Below, piece after piece: positions 5,729 through 8,036 of a stretch of DNA of 8,036 bases. Every line of letters begins with the position of its first letter. Position 1 is the stretch's first letter. The notes beneath the pieces are model-generated. The model saw only the letters and a list, made by a program, of their open reading frames with translations, was not told the DNA's origin and searched no databases. Location of the stretch: the IMG/VR virus record IMGVR_UViG_2703718851_000009; one strand, 5' to 3'. The stretch is from a virus (Duplodnaviria; Heunggongvirae; Uroviricota; Caudoviricetes). Position numbers and translations under genes: made by a program.

Positions 5729-6355
5729 TTAGAGTTCGTATTGAACTCCTTTGACTACACCAATGATAAGGCAATTACCATTGATAGGGATGTTGGGATA
5801 CCGAGGATTTAATGGCACTAAAAACTTTTGAGGGCCATCGATGACTAATTTTTTTACTGTAGCTTCGTTTGTTCCATCAAGTCGAGCGATGACTATTTTT
5901 CCATGACGAGGTTCTGCATCTGGATCTACAATCACTGTTGCGCCTTCTGGTATTGTTGGGAGGCCATTAGGGTTAGTCATGGAGTCACCTTTAACCTCTA
6001 ATGCAAATGAGTTATCACCAACCTTTAATGATGTATCTACCCACTTGTCCACTTCACTAAACACTTCTGCTGCCCTGCACTCAGTAAACTGCCCAGCCTG
6101 AACCCACGATATTACAGGAACTCTGCGCATGTTTGTGACGAGTTTGCCTTCAAACTCAGCACCATAAAGAATGTAATCTATTGACGTATTGAAGAACTTC
6201 GCTAATTTCGAAAGTGCCTCCCCGCCAGGGGTATTGATGTCTTTCTCCCAGTACCCCACAGCAACGTCGCTTACTCCACAAAATTTACCCAATTCTTTCT
6301 GGGACGTTCTGGTAACTCTTCTCAGAGCTTTTATACGCTGACCAACCGTTTCCAT
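5729..6355 (-). CDS. cI: CI/C2-type prophage repressor: N-terminal XRE-family HTH plus C-terminal LexA-like S24 autopeptidase domain, 208 aa
   Basis: HTH region QKELGKFCGVSDVAVGYWE, Ala-Gly autocleavage site in ISWVQAGQF, Ser nucleophile in GDSM and Lys in TVKKLV. Strong resemblance to the P22 C2 repressor family (ISWVSAGQW, QGDSM, NPxYP, INGNC motifs) as recalled. Transcribed divergently from cro. Confidence 0.95.
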   Translation of the reverse strand: METVGQRIKALRRVTRTSQKELGKFCGVSDVAVGYWEKDINTPGGEALSKLAKFFNTSIDYILYGAEFEGKLVTNMRRVPVISWVQAGQFTECRAAEVFSEVDKWVDTSLKVGDNSFALEVKGDSMTNPNGLPTIPEGATVIVDPDAEPRHGKIVIARLDGTNEATVKKLVIDGPQKFLVPLNPRYPNIPINGNCLIIGVVKGVQYEL

Positions 6356-6452: not shown

Positions 6453-6653
6453 ATGACAACTGACGATATCGAAAGCTACTTCGGCAGTATTGAGAAAGTT
6501 GCTGCTTTTTTCGGCATAACAACTGAAGCCGTTTATCAGTGGCGAAACCGTCCGGGCCAGTTAATTCCAAAAGGACGTGCAGCAGAAGCTGCATATAGAA
6601 CTTGCGGACGGTTGCCATTTAAACCTGAGCTTTATGAAAAATCTAATGGATAA
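6453..6653 (+). CDS. cro: Cro-like HTH regulator (YdaS/Cro family), 66 aa
   Basis: Small HTH protein (FGITTEAVYQWRNR) divergent from cI, with a C-terminal ...KPELY motif typical of YdaS-type Cro proteins. Good Shine-Dalgarno. Confidence 0.85.
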   Translation: MTTDDIESYFGSIEKVAAFFGITTEAVYQWRNRPGQLIPKGRAAEAAYRTCGRLPFKPELYEKSNG

Positions 6654-7242
6654 ATCGATTAACAGAAACCACAGAACGATGAGGCTAACCGTGGGTAAGC
6701 ATCACTGGAAAGTAGAAAAACAGCCTGAGTGGTACGTGAAAGCTGTCAGAAAAACTATCGCAAAGTTGCCGGGTGGTTACGCTGAAGCAGCTGACTGGCT
6801 GGATGTAACAGAGAACGCATTATTTAACCGCCTTCGTGCCGATGGCGATCAGATTTTCCCGCTGGGATGGGCAATGATTTTGCAACGTGCTGGTGGAACT
6901 CACTTCATTGCTGACGCAGTGGCGCAGTCTGCAAATGGCGTCTTTGTGTCTCTTCCTGACGTCGAGGATGTGGACAACGCCGATATCAACCAACGCCTGC
7001 TGGAAGTCATTGAACAGATCGGCAGTTATTCAAAACAGATTCGTTCAGCAATTGAAGACGGTGTAGTGGAACCGCATGAGAAGACAGCAATTAACGATGA
7101 GCTGTACCTCTCAATTTCGAAGCTGCAGGAGCATGCAGCACTGGTCTACAAAATCTTTTGCGTTTCAGAAAGTAGTGACGCCCGCGAGTGTGCAGCTCCG
7201 GGCGCCGTGGCGTGTCGTGACTGTGGAGAAACTAACGCATGA
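6646..7242 (+). CDS. CII-like / YdaT-family regulatory protein, about 198 aa
   Basis: Follows cro on the same strand. Resemblance to the YdaT family (CII functional analogue in Rac-type prophages) is recalled, not searched. The ORF-track start at 6577 overlaps cro by 77 nt; the ATG at 6646 overlaps only the cro stop. No clear Shine-Dalgarno, so the start is uncertain (alternatives 6634, 6679). Confidence 0.65.
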
Positions 7243-7577
7243 ACAGTTTAACAACACACTACCGTCGCTCGCAACTGATTGCGCTTCCTGTACCGGGTGG
7301 AAAAGCGAAGGTGGAGTATTGCTATGCAGTAAATGTACCAGGTGACAGGGAAATTGTAACCCACAGCTTTGCAGAGTGGGCTGTGGGTGATTTCAACCGG
7401 CAGAAGGAGACAGTCCTTTGCGACAAGTTAACCGCTGGTTCAAAGATCACTACGGAGTGCCCGTCAGAGTCATTCGTTGGGAGCCGGAAACACAACGTGT
7501 TATCTACCTCCGCGAAGGCTATGAGCATGAGTGCTTCAGCCCGCTCGAACAGTTTCGTCGTAAATTCAGGGAAATAG
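7239..7577 (+). CDS. Hypothetical protein, 112 aa as an intact ORF, but possibly a frame-disrupted gene (see findings)
   Basis: ATG overlaps the YdaT-like stop (ATGA). The N-terminal ~57 codons look coding. The 3' part in this frame is Ser-rich and uses rare codons (tta, tca, tct), whereas a different frame at 7391-7597 uses E. coli-preferred codons and translates to a protein-like sequence. Confidence 0.35.
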
Positions 7578-7586
7578 AGGTCGGTC

Positions 7587-8036
7587 ATGAGCACTAAATT
7601 AACCGGCTATGTATGGGATGGTTGCGCAGCGTCAGGCATGAAATTATCCAGCGTGGCAATTATGGCCCGCCTGGCTGATTTCAGTAATGACGAAGGTGTG
7701 TGCTGGCCATCGATTGAAACCATTGCACGCCAGATTGGCGCGGGGATGAGTACCGTCAGAACGGCTATCGCACGGCTGGAAGCAGAAGGCTGGTTAACGC
7801 GTAAGGCGCGTCGCCAGGGTAACCGCAATGCGTCGAATGTTTATCAGCTTAACGTTGCGAAGCTTCAGGCAGCGGCATTTTCTCAACTGTCAGATTCTGA
7901 CCCGTCAAAATCTGACGCATCAAAATCTGACCCGTCAAAATTTGATGCGTCGAAATCTGGCAAAAAAGCGGGTTTTCACCCGTCAGAATCTGGCGGGGAT
8001 CCGTCAGTAAAATCAAAACATGATCCGTCAGATAAA
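7587..8036 (+). CDS. Replication initiator (lambda O / P22 gp18-like), 5' partial, runs off the window end
   Basis: Not in the ORF track because it has no stop inside the window. ATG at 7587 with GAGG 6 nt upstream; open for all 150 codons to 8036. Translation MSTKLTGYVWDGCAASGMKLSSVAIMARLADFSNDEGVCWPSIETIARQIGAGMSTVRTAIARLEAEGWLTRK looks like a winged-helix N-terminal domain, followed by SDPSK-type pentapeptide repeats encoded by the iterons. Confidence 0.7.
   Translation, partial: MSTKLTGYVWDGCAASGMKLSSVAIMARLADFSNDEGVCWPSIETIARQIGAGMSTVRTAIARLEAEGWLTRKARRQGNRNASNVYQLNVAKLQAAAFSQLSDSDPSKSDASKSDPSKFDASKSGKKAGFHPSESGGDPSVKSKHDPSDK
7889..8036 (+). repeat. Iteron-like tandem repeats (about 15-bp period, each with internal dyad such as TCAGAttCTGA or GTCAaaatcTGAC): putative phage origin inside the initiator gene
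   Basis: At least five consecutive ~15-bp units at 7889-7960 and three more degenerate CCGTCAGA-type copies up to 8036. Lambda ori likewise sits inside the O coding sequence. Confidence 0.6.

Follow-up and report, generated by a model that had tools for sequence, protein, structure and literature searches.

The tandem repeats at the end of the window (the whole 8,036-nt stretch of phage DNA that was analysed) are very probably the replication origin of an SfIV/SfII/CPS-53-type lambdoid prophage, embedded in the linker-coding part of its initiator gene. The original prediction had named these repeats as the probable phage origin, and it is supported by comparative evidence, namely the layout of the region, conservation at the DNA level and co-variation of the repeats with the initiator. 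A mechanism is proposed where dimers of the N-terminal winged-helix domain would bind six palindromic iterons to form an O-some-like complex, which would destabilise the adjoining A+T-rich stretch bearing two GATCCGTCAG boxes. The lambda-O-like C-terminal domain would then bring the replicative helicase, probably host DnaB-DnaC, and the cro - cII-like - ymfM-like - O operon would be transcribed across the origin, as in lambda. Counting against an origin are the 15-bp centre-to-centre spacing of the iterons, which is much tighter than the approximately 20-24 bp of lambda and may keep the sites from all being occupied together, the modest character of the A+T-rich stretch, and the lack of a P, DnaC or DnaB gene after the initiator.

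Neither a description of this origin type nor an experiment on its binding, unwinding or activity was found in the literature searched, and annotation does not mark it; the SfIV genome paper is silent on the origin, and a text search of the literature with the motif strings returned nothing relevant. Of the 5426 complete E. coli genomes, 1950 (36%) carry a 177-nt segment of the module (window 7860-8036), with up to four copies per genome, and the module also occurs in Shigella serotype-converting phages, in each case without origin annotation; the gene is labelled just 'helix-turn-helix domain-containing protein' or 'primosomal protein'. A placed origin would aid annotation and the reading of prophage induction and copy-number data, and would help in judging which cryptic prophages still replicate and in building vectors or replication-blocking tools.

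An O-like initiator gene and its internal repeat array

The features of the region are as follows, with strand given for coding features.

5729-6355, minus strand: S24 repressor
6453-6653: Cro
7587-8036, plus strand: O-like replication initiator gene, first 150 of 313 codons, cut by the window edge
7653-7796, plus strand: part coding for the winged helix-turn-helix (HTH_36; Pfam, aa 23-70), presumed origin-binding domain
7828-8010, plus strand: out-of-frame 60-codon ORF, a by-product of the repeat and not a gene
7889-7961: iterons 1 to 5, each a 13-bp palindrome with core TCArAwTCTG plus a 2-bp spacer
7889-7901: iteron 1, GTCAGATTCTGAC, a perfect 6-1-6 palindrome
7904-7916: iteron 2, GTCAAAATCTGAC
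7919-7931: iteron 3, ATCAAAATCTGAC
7934-7946: iteron 4, GTCAAAATTTGAT
7949-7961: iteron 5, GTCGAAATCTGGC
7962-7978: spacer between iterons 5 and 6, A6...T4, AAAAAAGCGGGTTTTCA
7979-7997: iteron 6 as a 19-bp near-palindrome, CCCGTCAGAATCTGGCGGG
7982-7994: iteron 6 as a 13-mer, GTCAGAATCTGGC, 33 bp after iteron 5
7998-8007: box 1, GATCCGTCAG, which includes a Dam GATC site (7998-8001)
8006-8036: start of the A+T-rich, least stable 40-mer, the candidate unwinding region, which runs about 9 bp past the window edge (from SfIV)
8022-8031: box 2, GATCCGTCAG, 24 bp after box 1, with GATC at 8022-8025

Positions 7400-8036 share 99% DNA identity with SfIV and SfII, both phages of Shigella, and with several phages and prophages of E. 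coli. The ORF starting at 7587 is translated in the window as MSTKLTGYVWDGC...SDSDPSKSDASKSDPSKFDASKSGKKAGFHPSESGGDPSVKSKHDPSDK, and the full gene in SfIV spans L001:4188-5129 (942 nt, 313 codons), where L001 is the SfIV locus and the window coordinate equals the L001 coordinate + 3399. Its product is O-like over its whole length according to phrog_391 ('replication initiation O-like'; match over 1-313, E 1.6e-135). Identity to lambda O is 30-35% in the C-terminal half (34.9% over aa 131-277, E 4e-18), with the lambda-like C-domain beginning at approximately aa 170, and this region also matches the 'replisome organizer' family phrog_4880 and Bacillus phage proteins. At the N-terminus, Pfam HTH_36 matches aa 23-70 (E 4.2e-11, 42.9 bits versus a cut-off of 25), and the LADxxNDEGVCWPS core of this domain is invariant in the family alignment. 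No match to PF04492 (Phage_rep_O) was found at E <= 0.1, and BLASTP against phage 434 O aligned residues 70-277 alone (E 7e-26), with no N-terminal alignment. The host gene is thus an O-like initiator, as had been predicted, but its N-domain lies outside the lambda O family. A Pfam search gave no Rep_3 match, just weak RP-C and DnaD_N matches below cut-off, while a PDB sequence search gave no more than weak MarR-type winged-helix matches, and a single-sequence AlphaFold model of the N-domain (pLDDT 52) was too poor for use.

Upstream of the initiator the window carries integrase, YfdR-/YfdQ-like genes, the S24 repressor, Cro, CII/CP76-like and ymfM-like genes, which is a standard lambdoid early region. 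The CII-like ORF at 6577-7242, which was called mechanically from a GTG at 6577, has a 77-nt overlap with cro; its true start is probably the equivalent of 6691, as the SfIV homologue is annotated. Elsewhere in the window, a 23-bp tandem repeat, TCTGAATAACCTTAGGCTGCCCAT, is present in two copies (2348-2394) inside a PAPS-reductase-like gene on the minus strand. A promoter scan found none, and three weak terminator-like matches were within chance.

The repeat had been described as units of about 15 bp, each with an internal dyad, in at least five tandem copies. These units are real: five 13-bp palindromes of the GTCAGAwTCTGAC type lie in register with an exact period of 15 bp (7889-7961), and a sixth follows at 7982. 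Tandem Repeats Finder gave period 15 for 7896-7959 (4.3 copies, 81% matches) and also a 30-bp super-period with 88% matches. A spacing of 15 bp is approximately 1.4 helical turns and would place adjacent dimers on almost opposite sides of the DNA, which the 30-bp super-period fits. Searching with GTCAAAATCTGAC at <=3 mismatches returned 14 matches in the window versus 2.9 expected, a number reached in 0 of 200 shuffles, and the six dyad-symmetric iteron sites inside the initiator gene account for 10 of the 14. Iteron 6 is the best-conserved element in the repeat region, with CAGAATCTGG invariant in 62 of 62 homologues, third codon positions included; per-position conservation in the spacer before it is low apart from GGTTTT. 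Translation of the 7587 ORF bore out the predicted phase with an SDPSK/SDASK peptide, the repeats being in frame with SDSDP SKSDA SKSDP SKFDA SKSGK; they span nt 303-408 of the gene (codons 101-136 of 313), which is the linker-coding segment.

Selection on the repeat DNA and its co-variation with the initiator

One alternative to an origin is that the repeat is the footprint of a low-complexity Ser/Asp/Lys linker generated by slippage, without a function as DNA. This fits the in-frame SDPSK/SDASK units and the slippage-like steps in which copy number changes. Its consequence would be conservation of the peptide repeat and not of the DNA, and the opposite was found among homologues. From 80 chromosomal loci gathered, 66 family members were kept, ranging from Escherichia to Proteus, Providencia, Yersinia and Pantoea, and all 66 retain the 15-bp units after the winged helix with near-fixed synonymous sites. 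As a same-gene baseline, the commonest codon averages 0.49 in the N-domain (40 amino-acid-conserved columns, four-fold codon families, 66 homologues), versus a third-base frequency of 0.91 in the repeats (Mann-Whitney p = 8e-6). The first Ser of the 321 repeat units is encoded by TCA (295) or TCG (26) and never by AGY, TCC or TCT, Lys is AAA in 210/210 and Glu is GAA in 44/44. The second Ser is TCT in 189/238, and its replacements retain the third T (TTT, CCT). Among Ser codons, the combined share of TCA and TCT is 20% in the N-domain versus 85% in the linker. Within the block GGTTTTsACCCGTCAGAATCTGGnGGGGATCCGTCAGTAAA, 61-62 of 62 sequences have the same base at third positions, even in codons that specify different residues (S/P/A = xCA).

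The reading frame itself can change while the DNA stays. In phiP27 a 1-nt deletion and a compensating 22-nt insertion mean that TTTTGACCCTTCAGAATCTGG is translated in another frame, as VLTLQNL instead of FHPSESG, and yet is conserved. Eighty IMG/VR prophages with 100% identical N-domains (L086-L165) have arrays that differ by whole 15-bp units, so that the initiator gains or loses five residues per unit and is 308, 313 (69/80), 318, 323 or 328 codons long, corresponding to 4-8 units; the point differences among them fall mostly in the 2-bp spacers, where the amino acid changes and non-synonymous substitutions are tolerated. Fixed synonymous positions beside varying residues are the reverse of what protein-coding selection produces, thus indicating that selection acts on the repeat DNA beyond the requirements of the protein. 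The codon analysis largely refutes the linker explanation, which we regard as very improbable. More generally, the combination of synonymous-site fixation, frame-independent conservation and spacer-confined changes offers a way to find origins embedded in genes.

Conservation of this kind could also stem from mRNA structure or from an overlapping gene on either strand, given that the palindromes could form hairpins and that ORFs are present at 7828-8010 (plus) and 7849-8016 (minus). This explanation is disfavoured and carries very little probability, since complementarity between the arms is no higher than independent variation would give (outer pair 154 versus 138.6) and the alternative frames are open in 7, 0, 29, 0 and 0 of the 66 homologues. 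The sole match in an Rfam scan of the gene was to a microRNA model on the palindromes, at 30.7 bits versus a gathering score of 97. The 7828-8010 frame is the one open across the region in just 7/66, which agrees with the earlier view of that ORF as a by-product of the repeat.

DNA-level selection alone does not imply an origin, and the repeats might be selected for another job, as an autoregulatory operator, a roadblock or sites for host or phage proteins, with the origin elsewhere. The modest A+T-rich stretch would suit such a role, as would the resemblance of iteron 6 to a block in lambda-type O genes that is unlike the annotated O-binding iterons of those genes. We consider this unlikely, because the repeats are inherited, and change, together with the winged helix of a replication initiator, because the layout mirrors ori-lambda and because the SfIV replication region contains no other iterated element that we could see. 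Packaging is also unlikely as their role, since SfIV has a cos site at the genome end (SfIV genome paper).

The N-domain and the repeats are inherited together while attached to at least three unrelated C-terminal domains: SfIV and Klebsiella phage 1 LV-2017 have a lambda-O-like one, phiNP and YeP2 share a second type, and phiP27 has yet another. Within the family, both the recognition-helix region GAGxSTVRTAI and the iteron core TCArAwTCTG are invariant, and a variant recognition helix, STVKSAIAEL, is accompanied by GTCAAnnnTTGAC units at the same 15-bp period. In relatives whose N-domains are 34-41% identical (Psychrobacter, Thorsellia, Phlomobacter, Thermomonas, Zooshikella), the iterated repeats found at this position are markedly different, and this also holds for a Pseudomonas-phage subfamily, Phi24B, Aggregatibacter S1249 and Pectobacterium ZF40; no clear iterated repeat was detected in the Vibrio D67 initiator gene. 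Such co-variation is the pattern that would be expected of cognate initiator-iteron pairs and points to the N-domain as the probable iteron binder. The iteron core CGTCAGA shares sequence with the boxes, which leaves the assignment of binder to element ambiguous.

Several degraded or rearranged copies of the module were encountered. In the E. coli K-12 lineage, a CPS-53/KpLE1 pseudogene (L250:3962-4669) retains the iterons and the C-domain without the winged helix; the match in K-12 is to CPS-53, and its identification as Rac oriJ was rejected. A second K-12-type relic (L056, L076), which we take to be e14-like, consists of codons 1-79 fused to unrelated sequence, and neither relic would be able to fire its own origin. 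The circular record pZ1322PEC0161-2 (plasmid, 15,977 bp; L258:1-10634) resembles lambda-dv in carrying repressor, cro, a related O-like gene, a DnaC-like ATPase, a nin-type region and Q, with variant GTCAAnnnTTGAC iterons and two GATCCGTCAG boxes. Its initiator frame is broken beside a G-run, which may be an assembly error; the interrupted gene undercuts the record as natural proof of origin autonomy and leaves it as weak support.

The A+T-rich stretch, the GAWCC boxes and helicase loading

The repeats had been thought to continue in degenerate form to the window edge. What lies there is instead a second repeat, GATCCGTCAGTAAAA (7998-8012) and GATCCGTCAGATAAA (8022-8036), 24 bp apart. Extending the window by means of SfIV, as the original prediction had proposed, revealed a melting candidate directly after the last iteron: in a nearest-neighbour scan, the least stable 40-mer of the gene, AGTAAAATCAAAACATGATCCGTCAGATAAAAAAACTTCT (L001:4607-4646, window 8006-8045; 27.5% GC), starts 12 bp after iteron 6. 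Its A+T-richness is moderate, with a z of 2.8 that several other 40-mers in the 3-kb context equal, so that it is a candidate melting site, suggested by its position.

Two GATCCGTCAG boxes 24 bp apart were found in 47 of the 66 SfIV-family members, and a GAWCC(N)GTCA box cluster follows the iterons in every HTH_36-type initiator subfamily examined, often in differing reading frames and with its first box one iteron period past the last iteron. Distant relatives have 2-4 GAACC(N)GTCA-like copies placed after their own iterons. There are four in Thorsellia (10-11 bp apart, frames 1, 0, 2, 0) and three in Psychrobacter (12 bp apart), whereas S1249 retains a single complete GAACC box beside two degraded ones (ATAACC, TAAACC); the boxes of Phi24B, Vibrio D67 and ZF40 read AGAACC..TCAC...GAACCAGTCAATGAWCC. 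All 75 non-redundant Pseudomonas-type loci have 2-4 boxes, which 2 of 1560 shuffles equalled, with 11 and then 12 bp as the commonest spacings and 1, 0, 0 as the commonest frames. Examples of these clusters lie at L083:2907-2950, at L193:1844-1880 and in L246, L247 and L249 (gene nt ~350-400). We take the boxes as part of the origin because they remain constant while the iterons change with the N-domain, and we hypothesize that they act as the opening or loading site. No published description of a GAWCC box cluster was found.

The original prediction also assumed a partner gene for the initiator, and this is absent from the closest complete relatives. In SfIV (L001:5126-8313) and in Klebsiella phage 1 LV-2017 the initiator is not followed by any P, DnaC or DnaB gene, whereas P follows in 6/6 of the other lambda-C-type O genes checked. 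The genes downstream in SfIV encode PerC, LexA_DNA_bind, KilA-N and DUF968/HNH proteins, and a methylase gene follows in the Klebsiella phage (L002:2451-3260). As no loader is encoded nearby, host DnaB-DnaC is probably used.

A broader, tentative reading, which we hold to be possible but rather less likely than not to apply in full, is that HTH_36-type O-like initiators have two-module origins, with subfamily-specific iterons and a superfamily-wide box cluster. Iterons may co-vary with the recognition helix, with 2-4 boxes in phase after the last of them, and the boxes could be an unwinding or helicase-entry element that is recognised, perhaps as single strands, by an invariant part of the initiator domain. 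They would then be a phage counterpart of the DnaA box and DnaA-trio; enterobacterial boxes would have gained the Dam GATC for methylation control, and SfIV-type phages might load host DnaB without a P-like loader. If the boxes are functional, they would show where opening or loading takes place for a large group of phage initiators that is as yet uncharacterised.

The enterobacterial boxes contain GATC, versus GAACC in the Pseudomonas, Psychrobacter and Thorsellia versions. Dam-like adenine methylase genes were also seen downstream of the initiator in several relatives, immediately so in L002 (2451-3260) and L003 (2870-3751) and one gene further in L004 (3477-4190). Methylation or SeqA control of the origin is possible.

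Comparison with known origins

The layout is ordinary for lambda-like phages; what differs is the domain family of the initiator, the length and spacing of the sites, the boxes and the missing loader. Iterons inside gene O are the textbook layout of ori-lambda (PMC5043065), and the lambda facts used for this comparison are from PMC5043065 and PMC7466680. In lambda and 434, ori-lambda comprises four 19-bp dyad iterons and a 40-bp A+T-rich region, and the iterons annotated in the lambda-type O gene of phage 434 lie at nt 349-433 (codons 117-145). As there, the repeats described here lie inside the gene of the initiator itself, in the part coding for the linker that joins the DNA-binding domain to the C-terminal one; the iterons have dyad symmetry and A-rich centres, the operon is cro-cII-O and the C-domain is homologous. 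A candidate melting region, of moderate A+T-richness, is placed downstream, and the order from iterons to this region along the direction of transcription would also be that of ori-lambda (PMC5043065). Unlike ori-lambda, the N-domain is HTH_36 and not Phage_rep_O, each iteron is 13 bp long and the period is 15 bp, instead of approximately 19 bp and 20-24 bp, the six sites are arranged as 5+1, the boxes contain GATC and no P gene follows.

The origins of Stx phages (933W and the 'P27' of Kozlowska et al.) have six lambda-type iterons, and extra iterons lengthen the initiator in frame (PMC7466680). Iteron number likewise varies between relatives here, although the Stx-phage origins have true lambda-type O proteins and iterons. 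We considered whether the 'P27' of Kozlowska et al. is phiP27 (NC_003356) and rejected this, as their P27 origin is lambda-type and belongs to a different phage. In gene 18 of P22 and phage L, predicted iterons within the initiator gene have been taken as the origin (PMC8022706), which is an inference of the same kind and strength as ours, made from distinct repeats in distantly related initiator genes. Their repeats have other sequences and lengths (11 bp in L), and both phages carry a gene for a DnaB-type helicase.

Iteron plasmids (RepA, pi, TrfA, RepE) similarly combine an initiator that has a winged helix, arrayed binding sites and an adjoining cluster of short repeats where the DNA opens. 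The 13-mers in their DNA unwinding element (DUE), an A+T-rich stretch which is the first to melt, are bound in single-stranded form (Wegrzyn 2014, cited in PMC5043065), and by analogy the GAWCC boxes could be their counterpart. Their iterons, however, are direct repeats of 17-22 bp that normally lie outside the rep gene, whereas those described here are dyads at 15 bp inside the gene, and there is no Rep_3-type domain here. Replisome organisers of the SPP1 G38P type, where oriL is inside gene 38 and the initiator binds repeats within its own gene, offer another parallel, as the C-terminal region of the present initiator matches 'replisome organizer' families; these systems are Gram-positive, with a dedicated loader and helicase and with unrelated repeats.

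A possible further link to lambda comes from lambda-C-type O genes with unrelated N-domains, all of which carry, directly after the A+T-rich stretch, an almost identical DNA block, CGTCmGAGAATTCTGrCGAATCCTCTGAC (peptide SSENSGESSD; L251:964-993, equivalents in L252 and L254-L257). Window 7980-8007, which comprises iteron 6 and box 1, matches this block in three ordered pieces, CGTCAGA / TCTGGCG / ATCC, a likeness in sequence which suggests that iteron 6 with box 1 and the lambda-C-type block may be a shared origin element.
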